Below are positions 2,628-39,670 of a DNA stretch of 44,178 bases, piece after piece. Below the pieces are notes generated by a model. That model was given only the letters and a program-made list of their open reading frames with translations. It was not told the DNA's origin and made no database searches. Every line of letters begins with the position of its first letter. The stretch's first letter is position 1. A program made the position numbers and the translations under genes. The DNA comes from a virus (Duplodnaviria > Heunggongvirae > Uroviricota > Caudoviricetes), in IMG/VR virus record IMGVR_UViG_3300045988_014135; one strand, written 5' to 3'.

Positions 2628-2878
2628 GTTTCCCCTTTCTCGATAAGTAAAGCCCCGCCTTAAAGCGGGGCGCTAGTCCTTATCATTTAAACATAGAAAC
2701 GGCGTAATCTCAGTAAACCAGTTACTTTTTACACAAGCAATAGAGTATGGCCCTTCCGAACGCGTCAGCGTAACTACACTCAGGACTTACGTCCCGCTCC
2801 GTTACCTGCCCGCGCCGCGGTCGCTTGCTCATACTTCACAAGCTCAGGTGGAGCTTATCATATTTTCAGTGAAAAGTC

Positions 2879-2894
2879 AACTATTCGAATAGTT
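2879..2894. repeat. perfect 16-bp palindrome AACTATTCGAATAGTT
   Basis: Read directly; lies in the 375-bp intergenic region upstream of promoter 2947..2975; half-sites match the AATAG/CTATT promoter dyad. Confidence 0.8.
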
Positions 2895-3002: not shown

Positions 3003-3524
3003 ATGGTTACTACAGTAATTACTTTCCCTGCGTATGTAGGGGCGAAAATATGCAGGGCTAAAAATGATGTTCGCTACTATTTGAACGCTTTTTACATAGA
3101 CCCTGAAGGATTGATAGTGTCTACGGACGGTCATAGATTGTTCGGCGACAATGTGAAGACCAACGTTGAGAAAGGGACTCTCATAGACATCAAAGGGAGA
3201 GAGCCTTCTAAATTTAACTACGCGGAGGTAAACCACGACAACGGCAGTGTATCTTTCTATGACGATAATCGTGCGCTTATATGTACACTTCCGGTAGATG
3301 TTGTAGAAGGAAACTTTCCTGACTGGAGACGCGTGGCGCACATCACACCGGGTGTTGTCGATAGTATAGGGTTCACTCTGCGCTATTTGGCAGACGCGTA
3401 CAAGATTTCTAAGGCATACAAAAATGAAATTGCTCGTTTCGATTTCCAGGACCAAACCAGAGGATGCAAAATACAATTTTCAAACACGGCCTTTATGGTG
3501 TTAATGCCTGCGCGATTTAAATAA
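3003..3524 (+). CDS. truncated beta sliding clamp (DnaN) homolog, domain II plus partial domain III
   Basis: NDVRYYLNAFYIDPEGLIVSTDGHRLF matches the DnaN segment DVRYYLNG...ATDGHRLA as recalled; FPDWRRV ~ FPDYRRV; C-terminal FMVLMPARFK ~ YVVMPMRL; only 173 aa; own promoter, AGGAG RBS and terminator; opposite strand to flanking genes. Confidence 0.6.
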   Translation: MVTTVITFPAYVGAKICRAKNDVRYYLNAFYIDPEGLIVSTDGHRLFGDNVKTNVEKGTLIDIKGREPSKFNYAEVNHDNGSVSFYDDNRALICTLPVDVVEGNFPDWRRVAHITPGVVDSIGFTLRYLADAYKISKAYKNEIARFDFQDQTRGCKIQFSNTAFMVLMPARFK

Positions 3525-11012: not shown

Positions 11013-11097
11013 TTCTCTCTACTCCGTTCTCGTTGTCGATGGAGTAAATATAATAGGGTCGAAGGTAATAGTCAACTAGTCATTGCGGAAAATAGAT

Positions 11098-14299: not shown

Positions 14300-14330
14300 A
14301 TCCTGTCTCTCCTCTCGTTTGTGTAAATGA

Positions 14331-14359
14331 ATAGTAGCCTATTCTATCTTAGTGTGCAA
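14331..14359 (-). promoter_or_regulatory. promoter TTGCAC-N17-TACTAT with dyad GAATAG-N4-CTATTC
   Basis: Minus-strand -35 at 14359-14354, -10 at 14336-14331; 16-bp perfect palindrome 14329..14344. Confidence 0.6.
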
Positions 14360-15880: not shown

Positions 15881-15905
15881 TCCTCTGTCTCGTTTCGATA
15901 AGTGA

Positions 15906-15934
15906 ATAGTATCCTATTATGTTGGGGTGTGCAA
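15906..15934 (-). promoter_or_regulatory. early promoter TTGCAC-N17-TACTAT with dyad AATAGTATCCTATT
   Basis: About 30 bp near-identical, in inverted orientation, to the promoter at 37186..37214; dyad 15905..15918. Confidence 0.65.
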
Positions 15935-16292: not shown

Positions 16293-16321
16293 GTTGCTTT
16301 TACATCCCCGCTATCCTATAC
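16293..16321 (+). promoter_or_regulatory. promoter TTGCTT-N17-TATACT for the rightward operon
   Basis: -35 16293-16298, -10 16316-16321, then AGGAG RBS and ATG 16354. Confidence 0.5.
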
Positions 16322-16353
16322 TCAGCTCCACCAAACAAACAGGAGATATAAAA

Positions 16354-16536
16354 ATGCAACATTACATGACCCAGAATGAAGTAGCTGAGCGTATTGGGGT
16401 GACACGCCAGACAATTAATAACTGGTTGCGCAGTGGTAAATTCCCTGACTGCTGTATTAAAGTTATGGGTCGCCGTTTACCAGGAACATTTGACCGTAAT
16501 AAAGTTGAAGCGTGGATTAAGGAGAATGTGAAATGA
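16354..16536 (+). CDS. AlpA/Xis-like HTH DNA-binding protein
   Basis: MTQNEVAERIGVTRQTINNWLRSGKFP...RNKVEAWI pattern; start at ATG 16354 after AGGAG. Confidence 0.6.
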   Translation: MQHYMTQNEVAERIGVTRQTINNWLRSGKFPDCCIKVMGRRLPGTFDRNKVEAWIKENVK

Positions 16537-16892: not shown

Positions 16893-17021
16893 ATGACGAA
16901 GTTAATAGTTCCACAGTTGCGCCGCCAGAAACACGGCGCTGATTTCTTCGCACCGGTAAAGATGAACCGCGCAATGCGTCGTATGCAGGAAGCCTTAGAA
17001 CGCGCGGAGAAAAAGAAATGA
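16893..17021 (+). CDS. small hypothetical protein
   Basis: 42 aa from internal ATG 16893; stop overlaps primase start. Confidence 0.35.
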   Translation: MTKLIVPQLRRQKHGADFFAPVKMNRAMRRMQEALERAEKKK

Positions 17022-19225
17022 ATATTGTTTTTGCAACGCTGCGTAACACTTTCGATAAAAACCCGGTAGCCCGTGAAATGCCACTGGAGCAGTTTGTAGA
17101 GTATGTCTGCGATACATCGAAGCGCCTGTCCGTAGACCCGTCATGGACTAAGGAAGAGTACGACGCGGCCAAGATTAAGCAGAAAGCTATTGCGCCGGTT
17201 GGCGGTCGCCGTAAGAACGCGATTCTGGAAGACAGTGTGGTTAAGTTCGATTTCGACCATCTAAACCGTACCCAGTACCGCGACCTCACCCGCAAATTCA
17301 AGAACGCGCCGTTCTTCAATATTCTGCACACAACGGCGTCGCACCAGCACGCGTGTAAAAACGGTGACTACGCTTTCCGCGTTCTTGTACCGGCCCGCAC
17401 GCCGTTTAACTCTAACGACGCGTGGATGGTGCAACGTGCTATTTGTGCTGAGTTAGAAATAGACGAAGCATTGCGCGACCACTGCACAGAAGATGGCAAC
17501 CGCCTTATCTACCTGCCGCATAAAGAGTCGAAGATAACGGTTACAGAAGGGCGTGTTATCCGTGCCGAGCGGTACATCAAGAAAGCCGAAGAAATGGGGT
17601 TGCGTAAGCGTGAAGCTAAGACCCTTGCTGCCGATGAGCATGGGCTTAACGCGGATATAGCGCATTTCTGCGAAGCGGAGCTTGGCCTTGACGCTTTATC
17701 TTCCGGTCGCGGGTACGAAGTGCCTTGCCCTAACGAACACCTGCACACCGGCAAAGGCTCCACCAGCATCATGCTCGACGGTAAAGAAGTGCGCTTCGTG
17801 TGCCAGCACACAAACAACGGTGCTTGCACTGAGCTTAACCGCCGACAACATTTGGCCCTGCGTATGTGCGGCCTTCCGGACGAGCTTAACGTAGACAAGC
17901 AACCTATCAGTATTAACAGCATTCGTGCGGCTCTGCCTGATTTACCGGATGAAGAGATTGAAGAACTGCACCGCACAGAGAACGAGGAGCCTGTAACTTG
18001 TACACTGGAAGACCTTGAAGACGATGACGAGTTACCTGAACCGGTAAAGGCTGATTTCGTCGTTGAAGGGTACATGCCGTCGGATTGCATCTGGGACATC
18101 GTCGGGGAATCCGGCACATATAAATCATTCTATACGCTGGGTATGATGTACCTGAGCGCCGCAGGGTACCGGTTTGCAGGCGCTGATACACAGCGTTGCC
18201 ACCATTTCTATATTGACGGTGAGGGCGGTGCTGCCACACGCACCCGTATTGATGCACTCGCGGCTAAATACGGCGAGGAAGGTAAAGATTATGTACATGT
18301 CATCGATATGGGCGAAGTTGGCAAACTGAAAAGCCTGATTAAGCTAATGCGAGAAACTGCGGGTGGCGAACCCATCGGCATGGTCGCGTTCGATACTCTC
18401 AACCAGACACTGGCCCTGACGATTGATAAGTTCGACGAGAACAGTTCATCAACGGCAATCGGCATGGGTAAAGTTATCGCCATCCTTAAAGAAGTACGTG
18501 ACGCAACTAAAGCCGCGGTGGGCGTCGTCCACCATACACCGAAGGGCGGAAAGAAAGCCCGTGGCAGCGGGGCGCTGTATGCGGGTGTCGATGTGGAACT
18601 GACAATAGAACGTGCAACCGACCGTCAGATAAACGTATACCACTCGAAATTTAAGCACGGGCCTCAACAGAAAACGGTTGGCATGGTGCTGGAGTCCGTA
18701 CAGTTCCGTGAAGCGCCGCCGCCGAAAGAGTACCGCGCGGTTGAGTTCCTGGGCAGCACAGAGGAATACGGCACAATCGTAAACCTCGACCTGCCGGAAC
18801 CACACAAGGCGCTTGTTCTGATGCCGTGGGGCTTCGAGCCGTTCAAAACTGACGAGGAGAAAGAGCGGGAAGAAGGGTTAACTAACGAAGGTAAACAAAA
18901 AGTAAAGGAAGAAGTTAAACGCGGCAGGGATGAAGTAAGGAAGGAGTCGATACTTTCGGCACTGGAAGACCTGCAACAGTCAGATGACACAGGTCGCGGT
19001 TTTACTCAGCAGCAGATAGTGGCCCGTTCCGGTGACTTTTCTGTGACTAACACCCATCTTGATAAAATGCTGAAAGATGGTGAACTAATGCTAGGCTGTG
19101 ATGCTAATGGCGAAGTAGTACCGAGAACGTATCGTATACCTGAAAGAATAGGGGATAGATTAAGGCCGAAGACAATATACGAACCGAATGAAATGCTAGT
19201 GGTTACTGAGGAAGATTTGGAATAG
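17018..19225 (+). CDS. replication primase/helicase (N-terminal primase-like region, C-terminal P-loop/RecA-like NTPase)
   Basis: 735 aa; NTPase block VGESGTYKSF...FYIDGEGG...MVAFDTLNQ...VVHHTPKGG resembles RepA/AAA_25-type helicases; first large gene of the replication module. Confidence 0.55.
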   Translation: MNIVFATLRNTFDKNPVAREMPLEQFVEYVCDTSKRLSVDPSWTKEEYDAAKIKQKAIAPVGGRRKNAILEDSVVKFDFDHLNRTQYRDLTRKFKNAPFFNILHTTASHQHACKNGDYAFRVLVPARTPFNSNDAWMVQRAICAELEIDEALRDHCTEDGNRLIYLPHKESKITVTEGRVIRAERYIKKAEEMGLRKREAKTLAADEHGLNADIAHFCEAELGLDALSSGRGYEVPCPNEHLHTGKGSTSIMLDGKEVRFVCQHTNNGACTELNRRQHLALRMCGLPDELNVDKQPISINSIRAALPDLPDEEIEELHRTENEEPVTCTLEDLEDDDELPEPVKADFVVEGYMPSDCIWDIVGESGTYKSFYTLGMMYLSAAGYRFAGADTQRCHHFYIDGEGGAATRTRIDALAAKYGEEGKDYVHVIDMGEVGKLKSLIKLMRETAGGEPIGMVAFDTLNQTLALTIDKFDENSSSTAIGMGKVIAILKEVRDATKAAVGVVHHTPKGGKKARGSGALYAGVDVELTIERATDRQINVYHSKFKHGPQQKTVGMVLESVQFREAPPPKEYRAVEFLGSTEEYGTIVNLDLPEPHKALVLMPWGFEPFKTDEEKEREEGLTNEGKQKVKEEVKRGRDEVRKESILSALEDLQQSDDTGRGFTQQQIVARSGDFSVTNTHLDKMLKDGELMLGCDANGEVVPRTYRIPERIGDRLRPKTIYEPNEMLVVTEEDLE

Positions 19226-19253
19226 GTAAAAAGAAAGGGGCGTTAAGCCCCTT
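19226..19253 (-). terminator. intrinsic terminator after the XRE gene
   Basis: GGGG/CCCC stem with 7-nt loop, U-rich tail on minus strand. Confidence 0.55.
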
Positions 19254-19458
19254 CACCGAACGCCAGCCACTTGGCGTCTACTTCCAGCACTTCCGCCAGT
19301 TTAAACAGCGTCGCCGGGCGGACGTCCTGAGTCACCCCAAGCGCAAGCTGGTTAATAGCGCCCTGGGAAACGCCCGCCAGAACAGCCAGACGGCGCTGGG
19401 AGATGCCGAGTTCTTTACGGCGTTGTTCTACACGGATACCTAGTTCAGATGGTTGCAT
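19243..19458 (-). CDS. XRE-family (Cro/CI-type) HTH transcriptional regulator
   Basis: 71 aa; LGISQRRLAVLAGVSQGAINQLALG helix-turn-helix; AAGGAG RBS; divergent from 19583 gene. Confidence 0.7.
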   Translation of the reverse strand: MQPSELGIRVEQRRKELGISQRRLAVLAGVSQGAINQLALGVTQDVRPATLFKLAEVLEVDAKWLAFGEGA

Positions 19459-19489
19459 GTCAATTACTCCTTAGTCAGTTGATATGTGA

Positions 19490-19518
19490 ATAGTACCATA
19501 TTAATTATTTTAGAAAAG
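19490..19518 (-). promoter_or_regulatory. promoter of the XRE regulator gene with degenerate dyad
   Basis: Minus-strand -10 TACTAT at 19495-19490; dyad 19489..19502 has one half-site mismatch (AATAT); weak -35. Confidence 0.5.
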
Positions 19519-19522
19519 CCCA

Positions 19523-19551
19523 TTGACAAGTGAATAGTTCGCTATTATAGT
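19523..19551 (+). promoter_or_regulatory. promoter TTGACA-N17-TATAGT with dyad AATAGTTCGCTATT
   Basis: -35 19523-19528, -10 19546-19551; dyad 19533..19546 inside the spacer. Confidence 0.65.
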
Positions 19552-19582
19552 TAGCCTATACCAAACGAGAGGAGAGAAACAA

Positions 19583-20083
19583 ATGTTAGAACAGTTCTTA
19601 AAATTACTGGAGCGTTTCGTAGTTGCCCATGAACTGATTGCGGCGAACAGTGCGAAACAAGTTGTTCATGCCGCCGCGCCGCTGGAAGTAGAGACGGTAG
19701 TGTATACCGAAGAATCAGCTTCCGAGTGCGAAGAAGAAACAACAAAAGAAATCACGGTTGAAGGTGAAGACGTCGTTGACACTAAACCTGCGGAGGAAGA
19801 GAAGCCGAAACGCAAGCCGCGTAAAGCTAAAGTAGAGGAACCAACGCCAGAGCCGGAAGAAGAGAAGGAAGAAGTCGATTACCAGTCTCTGCGTGACCAG
19901 ATTCAGGCTATCGACGATGCAATTAACGAAGGCCCGAGCAATGCCGCGTGTGACGATTCGGATGAACTGCTAGAAGAGTTCACCGGCAAGAAGATGAAGA
20001 TTGCCGCGATTAAAGACGAAGACCTGGCCGAGTACCTGGAACGCCTGACGGCAATCAAGAACAAGTATTTCAAAGAAGAATAA
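19583..20083 (+). CDS. highly acidic protein (function unknown)
   Basis: 166 aa, long Glu/Asp runs (EPTPEPEEEKEE), one basic patch KPKRKPRKAK. Confidence 0.5.
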   Translation: MLEQFLKLLERFVVAHELIAANSAKQVVHAAAPLEVETVVYTEESASECEEETTKEITVEGEDVVDTKPAEEEKPKRKPRKAKVEEPTPEPEEEKEEVDYQSLRDQIQAIDDAINEGPSNAACDDSDELLEEFTGKKMKIAAIKDEDLAEYLERLTAIKNKYFKEE

Positions 20084-20088
20084 CTATC

Positions 20089-20110
20089 TCGCGGCCTTCG
20101 GGCCGCTTTA
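20089..20110 (+). terminator. weak intrinsic terminator / attenuator
   Basis: Stem GCGGCC/GGCCGC, loop TTCG, short T-run. Confidence 0.4.
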
Positions 20111-20126: not shown

Positions 20127-20399
20127 ATGATTTACCAACTCTACCGCGCCGTTGACAGGCGGGATAACATAGAGGCGTTATGGCTGTTGCGTGCGCCGTC
20201 CGGTGCACACCAGATGGAAGAGATGGCGTACTTAGGAAAAGTACCACGGCCTAAAGATATAGGCCGTCACGTGTCGCAGATTAAGCGCACGACTTTTGCC
20301 AAGCCTGACTTTTATGTCTTCGAGTCGATGTATGGGTGGGCTATGCACTGCGACCATAAGACACGACATTTAATTGACCAGTGGGAGAGCAGGGTATGA
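20127..20399 (+). CDS. hypothetical protein
   Basis: 90-aa ORF; stop overlaps next start. Confidence 0.45.
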   Translation: MIYQLYRAVDRRDNIEALWLLRAPSGAHQMEEMAYLGKVPRPKDIGRHVSQIKRTTFAKPDFYVFESMYGWAMHCDHKTRHLIDQWESRV

Positions 20400-21637
20400 T
20401 TCTAAAAGAACGCGGTGGCAATAACGACGTACACGCATTACTGTCGCCATCCGGTGCTAAAAAGTGGCTTACCTGCGCCGCATCGCTGGCCTGTGAAAAA
20501 GACATTCCAAATACGTCAGGTAAAGCCGCCGTATTGGGTACCGCCATGCACACCATAGCTGAGATGCACTTAAACCAGTACATCAAAGGCACTGCGCTGC
20601 CGTTAGAGCGTGAAGTCGGCGCTTACGTGCTGGATGAAGGTAAAGGCCAGATTAAGGCGCTAATCAGCCCGATGAAAGGCGCGGTACTGATTACGGCGGA
20701 TATGATTGAGCAAGTGCGCAAGTATACCGACTACTGCAAAGCGATTATCGATGTAGCGACTTACGCCAAGCTGGAAATGCGGGTAAATCTTACCGAGGTA
20801 TTGCATCCGGGCTACGAAGGCGTTGAGACATTCGGAACCGCTGACCTTGTTGCCGTTCAGGAACTGGCGAACACCGAAGAGCACATGCTCATTATTGGCG
20901 ACCTGAAAACAGGACGGCATCGTGTCGAAGCGAAAGAAAACAAGCAGCTTATGCTTTACGCGCTGGGTGTTTATCGCCGACTAAAGCGACGTTATAGCAT
21001 AACAACCGTTCGTCTGGTCATCTTCCAGCCTTACGCTGGGGGCGCGTCAGAGTGGGACATCTCGGTTGAGGGCCTTGAACTGTTCGCTAAGTTTGCGCAG
21101 AAACGCGCGCTGTTGGCCCTTGATGCTTATTCCCGCGGCAAGAAGAACCTGAAAGCGTCGGACTTCAAGCCGTCTGTCGATGGTTGTCAGTGGTGTCGGT
21201 TCTCTGAACAATGCGCTGCGCGTACAAAAACCGTTAACTCGGTACTGGCGGAAGAACTGGAAGACGATTTTGCGCTGGAACTTACGCCGGAGCAACTCGT
21301 AGCTGAGTATGAGAAGTTGCCGTTGTTGCGCCAGCACATCGACAAGGTTGAGAAAGCTATGGCCGCCGCGTTGCATTCCGGTAAGAAAGTGCCAGGGTAC
21401 AAACTGGTTGAAGGTCGTCCTGGTAATCGTGCGTGGAAAGATGCGGAGAAAGTAGCAGAACTCTACGGCGACAAGCTGACTAAAGAAGTGCTCATGTCAC
21501 CTACCGAAGCTGTTAAAGTCATACCGGAAGAAGAACTGAAAGACTTCATTACCCGTAAGCCCGGCGCGCCATGCGTCACAACGGCGGATGACAAACGTCC
21601 TGAGTGGAATCAGGTTAGTGAAGAAGATTTGGAATAA
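20396..21637 (+). CDS. Cas4-like PD-(D/E)XK exonuclease (DUF2800-type)
   Basis: Nuclease core ...FGTADLVAV...IIGDLKTGR...QLMLYALG and C-terminal Cys cluster CQWCRFSEQC; start at ATG 20396 after GGGAGAG. Confidence 0.65.
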   Translation: MILKERGGNNDVHALLSPSGAKKWLTCAASLACEKDIPNTSGKAAVLGTAMHTIAEMHLNQYIKGTALPLEREVGAYVLDEGKGQIKALISPMKGAVLITADMIEQVRKYTDYCKAIIDVATYAKLEMRVNLTEVLHPGYEGVETFGTADLVAVQELANTEEHMLIIGDLKTGRHRVEAKENKQLMLYALGVYRRLKRRYSITTVRLVIFQPYAGGASEWDISVEGLELFAKFAQKRALLALDAYSRGKKNLKASDFKPSVDGCQWCRFSEQCAARTKTVNSVLAEELEDDFALELTPEQLVAEYEKLPLLRQHIDKVEKAMAAALHSGKKVPGYKLVEGRPGNRAWKDAEKVAELYGDKLTKEVLMSPTEAVKVIPEEELKDFITRKPGAPCVTTADDKRPEWNQVSEEDLE

Positions 21638-21641
21638 AGTG

Positions 21642-21670
21642 TTGACACCTGAATAGTTAGCTATTATATT
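21642..21670 (+). promoter_or_regulatory. promoter TTGACA-N17-TATATT with dyad AATAGTTAGCTATT
   Basis: -35 21642-21647, -10 21665-21670; dyad 21652..21665. Confidence 0.65.
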
Positions 21671-21726: not shown

Positions 21727-22353
21727 ATGGGTATTAAACTGAATCTGCGTAAAGTAAACACTGCATGGGTTAACGTATTTGAACGCGAAAAAGACCGTGA
21801 AAACGATGACGGCTCAATCACTAAAGGCCAGTACAGCGCAACGATTATCATGCCGCCGGACCATGCTCAAATCGACGCGCTCTACGACACTGTTTACGCT
21901 GTAGTCGAAGAAGCATTGGGTGCCGCCGCTGCCGAAAAATGGATGAAGTCTAACTACGGCGAAGGTAAGCACATGGATAAATGTGCGATTAAAGATATTG
22001 CTGAGCGCGACAATCCGTTTGAAGACTTCCCGGAAGGCTTCTACTTCAAAGCGAAGGCTCAGAAACAGCCACTGATTGTAACCTCTAAAAAAGGTGAGAC
22101 TCAGGTAGAACAGGACTTCAACGTAGACGGCGAACAGATTGAAGGGGAACAGGTTTACAGCGGCTGCGTTGCTAACGTAAGCGTCGAAATCTGGTTCAGC
22201 CAGAAATACAAAGTCCTCGGCGTCAATCTGCTGGCGATTAAATACGTTGGTGAAGGTAAAGCGTTTGGTGGTTCTAAAGTTGCTGCGAGCGTCGATGACC
22301 TGGAAGACGACGAAGAAGACGAAGCACCGCGCCGCGAACGTCGCCGCCGCTAA
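21727..22353 (+). CDS. ssDNA-binding protein candidate (DUF2815-like)
   Basis: 208 aa between Cas4-like nuclease and PolA, a position where DUF2815 SSB-like genes commonly sit; acidic C-terminal region DDLEDDEEDE. Confidence 0.45.
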   Translation: MGIKLNLRKVNTAWVNVFEREKDRENDDGSITKGQYSATIIMPPDHAQIDALYDTVYAVVEEALGAAAAEKWMKSNYGEGKHMDKCAIKDIAERDNPFEDFPEGFYFKAKAQKQPLIVTSKKGETQVEQDFNVDGEQIEGEQVYSGCVANVSVEIWFSQKYKVLGVNLLAIKYVGEGKAFGGSKVAASVDDLEDDEEDEAPRRERRRR

Positions 22354-25160: not shown

Positions 25161-25441
25161 CCCCGGAGGGCAAGATTCAGAAATACGCAAAAGAGCGATT
25201 CGAGGCCCTGGGGGGCCTCGTACGCAAATTGTCGTACGAAAATAGAGTGGGCGCTCCTGACCTGCTGGTAATTCTCCCCGGCGGCATCGTATGGTTCGTC
25301 GAGGTTAAGAAAGACGAAAATACGAAGCCTGACCTGCACCAGTTACGAGAGCACGAGCGGATGCGTAAACGTGGTGCAAATATTTTTGTCGTCGGGTCGT
25401 TCAAACAGGTTGACGACCTAATAGCGAACTATTATAGTTAG
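25157..25441 (+). CDS. VRR-NUC domain nuclease
   Basis: 94 aa with PD-(D/E)XK-like core DLLVILPGGIVWFVEVKKD. Confidence 0.6.
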   Translation: MTPEGKIQKYAKERFEALGGLVRKLSYENRVGAPDLLVILPGGIVWFVEVKKDENTKPDLHQLREHERMRKRGANIFVVGSFKQVDDLIANYYS

Positions 25442-37185: not shown

Positions 37186-37214
37186 TTGCGCACCCCAACA
37201 TAATAGGATACTAT
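37186..37214 (+). promoter_or_regulatory. promoter TTGCGC-N17-TACTAT with dyad AATAGGATACTATT
   Basis: -35 37186-37191, -10 37209-37214; dyad 37202..37215; near-identical to early promoter 15906..15934. Confidence 0.65.
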
Positions 37215-37255
37215 TCACTTACACCAACAATGTTAACTCAAACAGGAGCTACACC

Positions 37256-37447
37256 ATGACAGGTATTACTATGTTCTTCTTAATCATTATCGTTTTAGTT
37301 TATTTTATCCCGTTTTTAGTGGCCCATATGCGCGGACATAAAGCGAAACTGGCGATATTCATGGCTAATCTGTTTCTCGGCTGGGTTCTGCTGCCGTGGG
37401 TATTTATTTTAATCTGGGCTTGCAACTCGAATGTCAAAGAGAAGTGA
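37256..37447 (+). CDS. superinfection-immunity-like small membrane protein
   Basis: 63 aa, two TM helices; YFIPFLVAHMRGHKAK...NLFLGWVLLPWVFILIWA resembles the Imm_superinfect family pattern as recalled; start at ATG 37256 after AGGAG. Confidence 0.5.
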   Translation: MTGITMFFLIIIVLVYFIPFLVAHMRGHKAKLAIFMANLFLGWVLLPWVFILIWACNSNVKEK

Positions 37448-37485
37448 GCTAGTATAGGACAAATCCTAAACACGAGGAAGTAAGC

Positions 37486-38616
37486 ATGGCCCGGAAGAAA
37501 ATAACCGACGAACAGTTACAGGAAGAATTGAACGCCGGAACAAAGATTATCGACATATCCCGTAAATACGGCATCTCAGACCGAGTTATTCGTATCCGTA
37601 AAGCGAAGCTGGCGAAGAAAGGCGTAGGTCACGGTCGTGACGTTAGCCATCTTGTCCCGGACGGCTACAAAATTAAAGGAACGTCGTCACTGGTGGACGA
37701 GTTCGGCAACACTAAGTTGCAATGGGTTAAGACAGACACCGACGCCGAACGTCAGGTCGAGTTAATGAAAGCCGTGATCGAAGGAATGAAGTCGGAGATT
37801 ACGCCAGTTGCGCCGGTTAAAGCGACTCGAGCCAAACGCGACGATAAACTACTCAATCTGTACACGGTATCTGATTTCCATCTTGGTATGCTGGCCTGGG
37901 CTGACGAGAGCGGCGACGACTGGGATATGAAGATTGCGGAAGACCTGTTCTCCCGATGGTTCGATGCGGCGTTTCAGAAAGCACCAGATGCAGGAACTGG
38001 GGTTATTAACCTGCTGGGTGACTTCGCGCACTTCGATAGTCTGGATGCGGTTACGCCAGCGAGTGGTCATGTTCTTGATGCGGACACTCGTTATCAGAAA
38101 CTGGTCCGCTACATGATTCGTATGGTACGCCGTGTTGTTGACATGGCGCTGGTTAAGCATAAATCTGTTCGCTTGCTTATCGTGCAAGGGAACCACGACG
38201 AAAGCGGAATGATTTGGTTAGCTGAGATGTTTAGTACGCTGTACGACAATGAGCCGCGTGTGTTCGTCGATACGTCGCCGGATGTTTACAAGATGGTCCA
38301 ACACGGCAAAACTACGCTGTTCTTTCACCACGGGCATAAGGCGCGATTCGACGCTATCGAACCGGTAATGATTGCCAAGTTCCGTAAAGCGTTCGGCGAG
38401 AGTGTTTACAGCTACGCCCACGTAGGCCATCTGCACCACCAGAAGATTGTAGAAAGCCGTAACATGATTGTTGAGCAACACCGCACCTTAGCGGCTAAAG
38501 ACGCCTACGCCTCGCGCGGCGGATGGATGTCGGGCCGTAGTGCAAATGTAATTACTTATAGCGCCGAATATGGCGAGGTCGCACGTTTAACTATTTCACC
38601 GGAGATGCTGGGATGA
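37486..38616 (+). CDS. calcineurin-like metallophosphoesterase with N-terminal HTH-like domain
   Basis: Motifs DFHLG, GDFAHFD, GNHDE, HHGH, GHLHH; basic N-terminal segment ISRKYGISDRVIRIRKAKL looks HTH-like. Confidence 0.6.
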   Translation: MARKKITDEQLQEELNAGTKIIDISRKYGISDRVIRIRKAKLAKKGVGHGRDVSHLVPDGYKIKGTSSLVDEFGNTKLQWVKTDTDAERQVELMKAVIEGMKSEITPVAPVKATRAKRDDKLLNLYTVSDFHLGMLAWADESGDDWDMKIAEDLFSRWFDAAFQKAPDAGTGVINLLGDFAHFDSLDAVTPASGHVLDADTRYQKLVRYMIRMVRRVVDMALVKHKSVRLLIVQGNHDESGMIWLAEMFSTLYDNEPRVFVDTSPDVYKMVQHGKTTLFFHHGHKARFDAIEPVMIAKFRKAFGESVYSYAHVGHLHHQKIVESRNMIVEQHRTLAAKDAYASRGGWMSGRSANVITYSAEYGEVARLTISPEMLG

Positions 38617-39101
38617 AAGATATTGTGATTTTCGATTTAGACGGGACATTGGCGGATGGTACTCATCGTTTACACCTGCTGCCGAAAGATAACTACGGCG
38701 AAACCTGGGCGTGGAAGCCTTTTAACATGGCCTGCAAAGATGACGCGCCCATTAAAGATAACATCCACTTGTGCAACACGCTGTGGCATACCGGGATGAC
38801 CATAATCATCCTTACCGGGCGAAGCGACGACGCCGAGGAAGAAACTCGTGAGTGGTTACGTAAAAACAATGTCAAGTTCGACGTTCTGTTAATGCGCAGC
38901 AAGCACGACAACAGAAAAGACATCGTAATTAAAGAAGAGGTGTTACGTGCTATCGGGCTGGAGAGAATATTGTGTGCGTTCGACGACTCTCCAGCGGTAA
39001 TAAAGCATTTCCGCGGACTCGGTATAACCACTCACGCGGTTACTGAATACGACTGTAACGGGAACTCTACACACTTAAAATCACACGGGAGCGATAAATA
39101 A
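38613..39101 (+). CDS. HAD-family phosphatase resembling the T4 Pnk 3'-phosphatase domain
   Basis: VIFDLDGTLA nucleophile motif; IIILTGRSDD and RKDIVIKEEV parallel T4 Pnk VIFDVDGTLA / VVVSGRESG / RKDDVVKEEI as recalled. Confidence 0.55.
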   Translation: MKDIVIFDLDGTLADGTHRLHLLPKDNYGETWAWKPFNMACKDDAPIKDNIHLCNTLWHTGMTIIILTGRSDDAEEETREWLRKNNVKFDVLLMRSKHDNRKDIVIKEEVLRAIGLERILCAFDDSPAVIKHFRGLGITTHAVTEYDCNGNSTHLKSHGSDK

Positions 39102-39670
39102 TGGCTAAGGTAATTATTCTTAATGGCCCTGCGGGCTGCGGGAAAGACACACTTGCTATGGCGCTGGTAGAAATGGGCTTTGCGAAAGGAACTACCAGTT
39201 TCAAGAATCCAATGTTCAATATTGCTCGGGCAGCGTTAGGCCCGGATGCTTACCACGAATTTCTCGACGGCTACGACGACCGGGCACGGAAAGAAAAGCC
39301 AGAATGTTTCCTTAATGGGTTGTCGCGACGTCAGTTCATGATTGCTATCTCGGAGCAATTCATTAAGCCTGTACTTGGCAATGATTATTTCGGTAAGTAT
39401 CTCGCTGAAAACTTGCCTGACGGCGACGAAGTTTTTGTAGTGTCCGACGGTGGGTTTGCCAGTGAAGTTGCCCCTATCGTCGCCGCTGGGCATGACGTGC
39501 GAATCGTCCGCTTGCACCGAGACGGCTACACGTTTGACGGGGATAGCCGTGGCTACCTGTACGATATTGATGGGGTAGTATGCCATGACGTCGCCATCAT
39601 TCCTGGTGAGATTACATTAACCGCGGCCACGGTTGCCAATAGAATCCTGGGGATTTACCCAAATGCGTGA
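39101..39670 (+). CDS. P-loop kinase (dNMP-kinase-like; could be a polynucleotide 5'-kinase)
   Basis: Walker A LNGPAGCGKDT (GKDT as in T4 gp1 dNMP kinase as recalled); further blocks align loosely with T4 gp1. Confidence 0.5.
   Translation: MAKVIILNGPAGCGKDTLAMALVEMGFAKGTTSFKNPMFNIARAALGPDAYHEFLDGYDDRARKEKPECFLNGLSRRQFMIAISEQFIKPVLGNDYFGKYLAENLPDGDEVFVVSDGGFASEVAPIVAAGHDVRIVRLHRDGYTFDGDSRGYLYDIDGVVCHDVAIIPGEITLTAATVANRILGIYPNA

Follow-up and report, generated by a model that had tools for sequence, protein, structure and literature searches.

A Cro-like regulator gene in a Kagunavirus genome and a candidate operator palindrome embedded in its promoters

Why should a phage with no apparent integrase carry a Cro-like repressor gene back to back with a gene for a highly acidic protein? 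The question is raised by positions 19,243 to 20,083 of a Caudoviricetes genome of 44,178 nucleotides (IMG/VR record IMGVR_UViG_3300045988_014135; the whole stretch is called the window below). A first-pass annotation, made from the letters alone, had described there a Cro/CI-type XRE gene divergent from an acidic-protein gene. The coordinates and the identity of both genes proved correct; the pair is a real one, of an ordinary kind in a phage group as well sampled as this. The elements of the control region, as located by promoter and terminator scans and by inspection of repeats, are listed here.

19234..19254, minus strand: intrinsic terminator hairpin with T-run of the regulator gene (terminator scan)
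19243..19458, minus strand: Cro-like XRE/HTH_3 regulator of 71 amino acids (aa; Pfam HTH_3), with ribosome-binding site AAGGAG 8 nt 5′ of the ATG
19489..19502: candidate operator OA, AATAGTACCATATT, 9/10 arm positions matching
19507..19534, minus strand: alternative, weaker promoter-like site for the regulator, TTCACT-16-TAAAAT, 9/12 (promoter scan)
19523..19551, plus strand: predicted promoter of the acidic-protein gene and replication operon, TTGACA-17-TATAGT, 11/12 sigma-70 (promoter scan)
19533..19546: candidate operator OB, AATAGTTCGCTATT, perfect, filling the −35/−10 spacer of the replication-operon promoter
19583..20083, plus strand: acidic protein of 166 aa, phrog_3127

The divergent control region and its palindrome

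The regulator and acidic-protein genes, both with good ribosome-binding sites, are separated by 124 bp (19459-19582). This region contains a 25-nt direct repeat with copies 44 bp apart, and each copy holds one AATAG-N4-CTATT dyad. The earlier description of the region as dyad-bearing and divergent was therefore upheld: dyads of this sequence are far beyond chance, and the acidic-protein gene has an 11/12 promoter, the position of which is conserved in Jerseyvirus, in Cornellvirus and in Serratia phage Smarc3. On the minus strand OA reads TGgTACTAT (19498-19490) and its sequence is invariant in Kagunaviruses; the TACTAT hexamer, preceded by TG, is the probable extended −10 element of the regulator's own promoter, and the orthologous region of Jerseyvirus SETP7 reads TTGCAC-N17-TACTAT. 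The intergenic region as a whole is near-invariant among Kagunaviruses, and the regulator gene varies at scattered positions.

The dyad was then counted throughout the window. With at most one mismatch it occurs at 10 sites, compared with 1.14 ± 1.03 in shuffled sequences, none of which reached 10 (0/100). An unbiased count of all palindromes with 5- or 6-bp arms placed AATAG-N4-CTATT first (7 perfect copies vs 0.04 expected), and the remaining enriched palindromes were GC-rich terminator stems. Besides OA and OB, the following sites were obtained.

2872..2885, one mismatch: over a minus-strand TTGACT −35-like hexamer, upstream of the spanin, scaffold and capsid genes (genes assigned by comparison with phage Bas74)
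2963..2976: over the −10 of a plus-strand TTGCGC promoter, before an open reading frame (ORF) of 173 aa at 3003-3524
11067..11080, one mismatch: over the −35 of a minus-strand TTGACT-17-TATATT promoter
14330..14343: over the −10 of a second minus-strand TTGCAC promoter
15905..15918: over the −10 (TACTAT) of a minus-strand TTGCAC promoter, leftward small genes
21652..21665: in the spacer of TTGACA-17-TATATT, upstream of the gene for a single-stranded DNA-binding protein (SSB) and of PolA
25420..25433: in the spacer of TTGACG-17-TATAGT, upstream of the SNF2 helicase block
37202..37215: over the −10 of a plus-strand TTGCGC promoter, before a phosphoesterase, PNKP-phosphatase and kinase-like block

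All 10 sites lie in promoter-like contexts, which fall into three layouts. In the first, the dyad occupies the spacer of TTGAC(A/G)-17-TATAGT/TATATT elements before the acidic-protein operon, SSB-PolA and the SNF2 helicase; OA lies in a weak copy of this layout. In the second, it overlies the −10 hexamer (TACTAT) of TTGCRC promoters, which precede the leftward small-gene operons (15905, 14330) and the plus-strand cassettes (2963, 37202). The third layout, in which the −35 hexamer (TTGACT) is covered, is represented by two imperfect sites, 11067 and 2872, each of which lies upstream of late genes. Because the position of the dyad relative to the hexamers differs by layout, it forms a module of its own, distinct from sigma-70 recognition.

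At orthologous promoters of Bas74, Jerseyvirus SETP7 and Smarc3 the arms are kept and the four central bases vary; this holds in all three genomes for the copy at 21652, the arms of which are conserved around a variable spacer. Exact copies of the spacer-type module in IMG/VR were found only on contigs of up to ~45 kb, mostly 41-45 kb, a distribution consistent with this phage group. A literature search, with some key older papers outside its reach, found no description of the operator set.

The regulator as candidate binder

The regulator matches Pfam HTH_3 over residues 11-65 (E=2.3e-12, 47.2 bits, cutoff 23), and its helix-turn-helix (HTH) spans residues 5-70. Its closest solved relative is 434 Cro, likewise of 71 aa, with an end-to-end alignment (E=5.4e-7, 41% identity over 63 residues). 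As expected of a Cro-type protein, it consists of a lone DNA-binding domain, and no C-terminal oligomerisation domain or S24 peptidase domain is present. The top NCBIfam match is the DicA N-terminal domain (E=2e-11), under the cutoff. The regulator was found in 563 phage records; the Jerseyvirus version is just 52% identical. In Bas74 (L003 33202-33414) an intact regulator, 96% identical, is absent from the GenBank annotation, which lists instead a 96-bp ORF in the regulator/acidic intergenic region.

The AATAG dyad was looked for at 80 IMG/VR loci encoding regulator homologues and occurred only beside Kagunavirus-type and Jerseyvirus-type proteins. Two loci with the same module order and a regulator 48% identical (L123, L129) carry a different palindrome, TTAGC-N2-GCTAA, in 3 perfect copies vs 0.01-0.03 expected; it sits at the SSB promoter and at further TTGAC promoters, and an imperfect copy lies between the regulator and acidic-protein genes. 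The two palindromes are mutually exclusive between genomes. An HTH_17 protein (16354-16536), considered as an alternative binder of the dyad, has no homologue in Smarc3, which keeps the dyad, or in the Cornellvirus SP031. Taken together, the kinship with 434 Cro, the covariation of dyad and regulator and the exclusion of the HTH_17 protein make the XRE protein the best candidate for binding AATAG-N4-CTATT, as we infer from these sequence comparisons.

Two further palindrome searches were made. For Cornellvirus SP031, neither perfect-palindrome counts nor approximate matching of 14-mers gave an equivalent palindrome. TAAGA-N4-TCTTA, which is enriched in loci L109, L110 and L117, was rejected as an operator since its copies resemble stretches of conserved coding sequence or a ribosome-binding site.

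The balance of the sequence evidence tips slightly towards the 71-aa protein being a Cro-type dimeric repressor of a virulent phage that lacks a CI partner and an integrase, and acting at the dyad-bearing promoters, its own included. The regulator would bind the 14-bp palindrome that is built into essentially every recognisable sigma-70 promoter of the genome; occupancy of OB would block the promoter of the acidic-protein, exonuclease, SSB and polymerase genes, and OA would place the bound protein over the regulator's own −10 element. On DNA entry, host RNA polymerase would fire the dyad-bearing promoters, which would be occluded as the regulator builds up. The perfect sites, at early and replication promoters, would be expected to fill first, and the imperfect sites, at the regulator's own promoter and the two promoters upstream of late genes, to fill last. 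The predicted outcome is temporal shut-off combined with negative autoregulation.

Several points weigh against this scheme. Covariation is confounded with phylogeny, so that the palindrome could be bound by any protein of the module that is specific to the clade. A regulator gene with no clear palindrome is seen in Cornellvirus and several other clades, and Jerseyvirus has the same motif despite the divergence of its regulator. Imperfect sites are present upstream of late genes too, and simple early shut-off may thus be incomplete. Finally, the RNA sequencing available for the related phage K1B4 is coarse and the temporal class of the acidic-protein gene is not given (PMC12645636).

The Cornellvirus and Jerseyvirus cases, like the DicA match, would also suit a rather unlikely arrangement in which a different factor, of phage or host origin, binds the palindrome and the XRE protein is limited to its own locus, or acts in a DicA-like manner on host or prophage genes. 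The complete change of the motif in a related clade of the same gene order argues against a host factor, however, and the only other predicted HTH protein is missing from the motif-keeping Smarc3. Moreover, the only tandem pair of dyads flanks the regulator gene itself.

The Cro-type repressor favoured here shares with 434 and lambdoid Cro its size, its single HTH_3 domain and a candidate palindromic operator of 14 bp with a non-conserved centre, of which two copies lie between back-to-back promoters; the operators of 434 are also 14 bp long. It differs from lambdoid Cro in that no CI partner, integrase or bistable switch is present, and in that the operator lies over about ten promoters genome-wide and not in one immunity region. 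Mu Ner and Cro-like negative regulators are small HTH repressors that lower early lytic transcription and repress themselves. The role proposed here is similar, as judged by that general family description; Mu is temperate, whereas this family is virulent.

Genome identity and lytic lifestyle

By sequence comparison the window is a complete genome of ~44 kb of an E. coli phage of the genus Kagunavirus (Guernseyvirinae), a group of virulent siphoviruses. The 5.5 kb around the gene pair matched 450 phage records at 80-95% identity, chiefly Kagunavirus and Jerseyvirus (Guernseyvirinae), and related 44-kb genomes were almost fully covered by both window halves combined. In the relative PV656001 the end of the window runs on into its start; the window is therefore a complete, circularly permuted phage genome.

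The statement that the phage has no integrase, which had been made with a check of the full genome still to follow, stood up to that check. No integrase or recombinase was present in the full annotations of four relatives (Bas74, SETP7, SP031 and Smarc3), and no recombinase domain was detected in the ten larger window ORFs scanned, which included those with no clear Bas74 counterpart. A second XRE or CI-like repressor gene was likewise absent from the complete genome and from the four relatives, and tblastn with the regulator gave a single place per Kagunavirus record. The annotations of the relatives' records contained no partition or plasmid-maintenance genes. No prophage copy of the region was found in 5,426 complete E. 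coli genomes, and the contigs that bear the acidic-protein gene are all ≤46 kb.

Phages of the Kagunavirus type have been described as virulent and clear-plaque (PMC9787291). RNA sequencing of phage K1B4, which is 91% identical, grouped the regulator with the helicase-primase in the replication phase and listed the HTH_17 gene upstream as early (PMC12645636). The predicted promoter of that early gene (~16294-16322) is devoid of a dyad.

The proposal that the regulator times lytic gene expression and does not maintain lysogeny was accordingly found the more plausible one, in view of the missing integrase, CI gene and prophage copies and of the genome-wide, promoter-linked dyads. A lambdoid immunity switch would combine a CI partner, integrase and excisionase genes and an attachment site; neither a CI partner nor an integrase was found here.

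The same set of dyads nevertheless lends itself to another interpretation, in which the regulator is a relic of an immunity repressor, or a working one, that supports a quiescent episomal carrier state (pseudolysogeny) with no integration. With a dyad on nearly all promoters, full occupancy could silence the genome; the locus is laid out like the lambdoid PL/PR region, in which cro comes first in the rightward replication operon; and a whole phage of this type occurs as a circular "plasmid" in one clinical E. coli assembly, with contigs of ~43-46 kb in several others. We consider this interpretation very unlikely. The protein is Cro-sized and lacks the C-terminal domain of CI-type repressors, plasmid-maintenance functions are missing from the annotations, the phages are virulent and form clear plaques, and the early rightward promoter has no dyad. 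Carrier cultures of receptor-variable hosts would also explain the phage contigs.

The molecule concerned is CP088689.1, a circular record of 44,086 bp labelled as a plasmid in the assembly of an E. coli from human blood; it represents a whole Kagunavirus genome and matches the queried window segment 17000-22500 at 95% coverage and 90.7% identity. The acidic protein is also encoded on contigs of 43-46 kb in several other E. coli assemblies. These phage-sized molecules point to a carrier state or to contamination, and not to integration.

A bolder extension of the lytic Cro-type reading would have the Guernseyvirinae and their relatives govern their entire transcription by one Cro-only repressor, with operators of graded affinity set into almost all host-type promoters and co-evolving with the regulator in each clade. 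Such a system would be a stripped-down descendant of lambdoid immunity with a possible transient silent episome, and the acidic protein would serve as a new replisome/recombination hub or counter-defence factor. This extension appears unlikely.

The lytic, Cro-type reading is of practical interest because Kagunavirus and Jerseyvirus phages are common candidates for therapy and biocontrol, and their gene annotated "transcriptional repressor" is sometimes taken as a lysogeny marker. If the regulator is a Cro-type lytic regulator with definable operators, a safety ambiguity in therapy screening is removed; the predicted promoter and operator map would also be a starting point for engineering these small genomes, and the clade-specific swap of operators offers a compact natural system for the study of repressor/operator co-evolution. 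The analysis adds a candidate operator regulon built into promoters, which covaries with the Cro-like regulator from clade to clade, and it does away with the anti-restriction guess, to which we now turn.

The acidic protein and the replication operon

The acidic protein had been described as extremely acidic, with long Glu/Asp runs, and as a possible early DNA-mimic factor against restriction. Its acidity is real: the isoelectric point (pI) is 4.44 and the net charge −23, with 45 D+E residues (27%) and 22 K+R. The long runs were an overstatement, as the longest D/E run is 3 residues, and a basic KPKRKPRK patch is present. The protein matches phrog_3127 in full length (E=5.6e-67, residues 1-166 against profile positions 1-177 of 178). 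It belongs to a narrow family, which forms 27 clusters at 50% identity in a set of 1.84 billion representatives, and the protein was found in 485 records.

Throughout the family acidity is kept (pI 4.3-4.9, net charge −9 to −29). Two parts are conserved, an N-terminal helix of 25 residues and a C-terminal domain of 65; the charged linker between them is variable, with a K/P/R patch in most family members, and the C-terminus forms a (Y/F)-acidic tail. The conserved residues are hydrophobic or structural, not the acidic ones. In the AlphaFold model, a helix (2-22) is followed by a low-confidence linker (23-99) and a three-helix bundle (100-163) with a pLDDT (predicted local distance difference test) of ~90; pLDDT falls below 50 at residues 33-35, 37-74 and 88-95. 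In two distant family members (P0133, P0144) the C-terminal three-helix domain is tandemly duplicated.

Searches of Pfam and NCBIfam with the acidic protein returned no Ocr, ArdA, Gam or other family match; the sole Pfam match at E≤0.1 was a sub-threshold tick-peptide. When the family profile was compared with PDB sequences, nothing was obtained below E=0.5, and structural comparison gave no Ocr-, ArdA- or Gam-like match. A search of BFVD matched the Salmonella phage MB78 "13.88 kDa late protein" (UniProt Q9T1Z8), a direct homologue with 76% identity that also belongs with phrog_3127. This entry is the origin of the name "late protein", which has spread through GenBank records and carries no functional information. 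The literature search found no paper on the MB78 late proteins and no virion proteomics that mention the acidic protein.

An early DNA mimic, directed against type I restriction as are Ocr and ArdA or against RecBCD as are gp5.9 and Gam, would agree with the family-wide acidity, with the position of the gene first behind a near-consensus host-type promoter and with the adjoining exonuclease and annealing-protein genes. In lambda, gam is placed with exo and bet, and T7 5.9 lies beside gene 6. The acidic protein also resembles Ocr (T7 gp0.3) and ArdA in size, in its low pI and in a host-type promoter suggestive of early expression; ArdA has ~166 aa. Unlike Ocr and ArdA, however, it has no similarity to them in sequence or fold, nearly half of it is predicted to be disordered, most family members have the basic patch, and the gene is core and not accessory. 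The structure prediction that had been proposed as a check on surface charge gave a largely disordered stretch (23-99) and a generic three-helix bundle, not a recognisable mimic and not the compact fold with an ordered array of acidic side chains seen in Ocr and ArdA. Kagunavirus isolates were moreover very susceptible to restriction-modification systems in the BASEL study (10.1101/2024.09.12.612763), and these isolates encode ~90%-identical orthologues of the acidic protein. Because of the missing family match, the core-gene status, the disorder and the sensitive isolates, the DNA-mimic explanation was rejected as the leading one and is considered improbable.

The genes around the pair suggest a different role for the acidic protein.

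17018-19225, plus strand: helicase-primase, convergent with the regulator
20127..20399, plus strand: 90-aa protein, phrog_4965, second gene of the operon, conserved in relatives
20396..21637, plus strand: DUF2800 / PD-(D/E)XK (Cas4-like) exonuclease (Pfam DUF2800, E=2.5e-68)
21727-22353, plus strand: gp2.5-like SSB/annealing protein, followed by PolA

The exonuclease ATG at 20396 overlaps the stop codon of the 90-aa gene; in Bas70 the exonuclease gene has 1242 bp. With the 90-aa gene, exonuclease, SSB and PolA downstream, the acidic-protein gene heads a replication/recombination operon, and it is a core gene in this position, ahead of the exonuclease, SSB and polymerase genes, in all related clades examined. 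It probably encodes the first and highest-expressed product of this regulated operon. A protein-protein adaptor of the replication/recombination machinery is its most likely function, proposed with low confidence, and the protein would be better annotated as a conserved replication-module protein than as a "late protein" or by the anti-restriction guess. A hairpin after the gene (~20090-20105) was dismissed as a feature, its folding energy being not unusual (z=−1.55).

A different order is found in Cornellvirus, vB_SenTO17, Serratia phage Smarc3 and several IMG/VR clades: there the regulator heads a rightward operon that runs on into the helicase-primase and is divergent from the same acidic-exonuclease-SSB-PolA operon, which points leftward. 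As the divergent pair is kept across clades, it represents the conserved core, and the helicase-primase block has been inverted in Kagunavirus and Jerseyvirus; the inversion is seen for window positions 17018-19458 in comparison with L005, L006, L007 and L108-L129. In most related clades the arrangement thus resembles that of lambda PR/PL, with the regulator heading the rightward replication operon opposite the leftward exonuclease/annealing operon. The Kagunavirus/Jerseyvirus layout differs from the lambdoid one: the inversion leaves the regulator as a lone minus-strand gene, sharing the hairpin at 19234-19254 with the convergent helicase-primase. This hairpin overlaps the regulator stop codon and lies directly past the helicase-primase stop, and antisense read-through from the helicase-primase could modulate expression of the regulator.

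The slot between the operator-bearing promoter and the acidic-protein gene (window 19552-19582) is a variable cargo site. In the window and in Bas74 it is empty; Bas70 and JSSK01 carry a Cys-rich ORF of 75 aa there, SETP7 an HNH endonuclease and SP031 an acidic ORF of 58 aa. The corresponding coordinates in relatives are L001 4108-4335, L002 4096-4323, L004 868-1368 and L005 1118-1491. The slot is a plausible place for anti-defence morons.

This slot bears on whether the gene pair itself is an Aca/Acr-like cassette, in which an HTH autorepressor controls an anti-CRISPR or other anti-defence gene. A small XRE protein beside a small acidic protein behind a strong promoter recalls such cassettes, and an E. 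coli type I-E CRISPR array has spacers against this locus. The two genes are divergent and not co-operonic as Aca and Acr genes are, though, the acidic-protein gene is a core family gene that heads the replication operon, the operator occurs at about ten promoters and not at one, and the slot 3′ of the promoter would be a better place for anti-defence cargo; a cassette of this kind is therefore most improbable. The preferred reading remains a Cro-type regulator opposite a replication-module protein.

Two of the dyad-bearing promoters precede further cassettes. The plus-strand cassette 37202-39670 lies inside minus-strand tail genes and comprises a metallophosphoesterase (37486-38616), a PNKP-type HAD phosphatase (38613-39101) and an AAA_18-like, kinase-sized protein (39101-39670); it may be a polynucleotide kinase/phosphatase RNA-repair set. 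The 173-aa ORF (3003-3524, plus strand) has no Pfam match and runs opposite to the surrounding structural genes; at its equivalent place Bas74 has a 67-aa gene only.

The CRISPR array mentioned above belongs to E. coli 2017.09.02CC (NZ_AP025214.2; L061 308-885), adjoins cas2e/iap and contains nine spacers. The bases that flank the spacer matches in the window are not the canonical AAG protospacer-adjacent motif. One spacer is identical (100%) to the regulator gene (window 19263-19294) and the adjacent one is identical (100%) to the intergenic region between both operators (19495-19526). A third matches the 90-aa gene at 30/32 positions (20226-20257) and a fourth matches Bas74 at 27/30.

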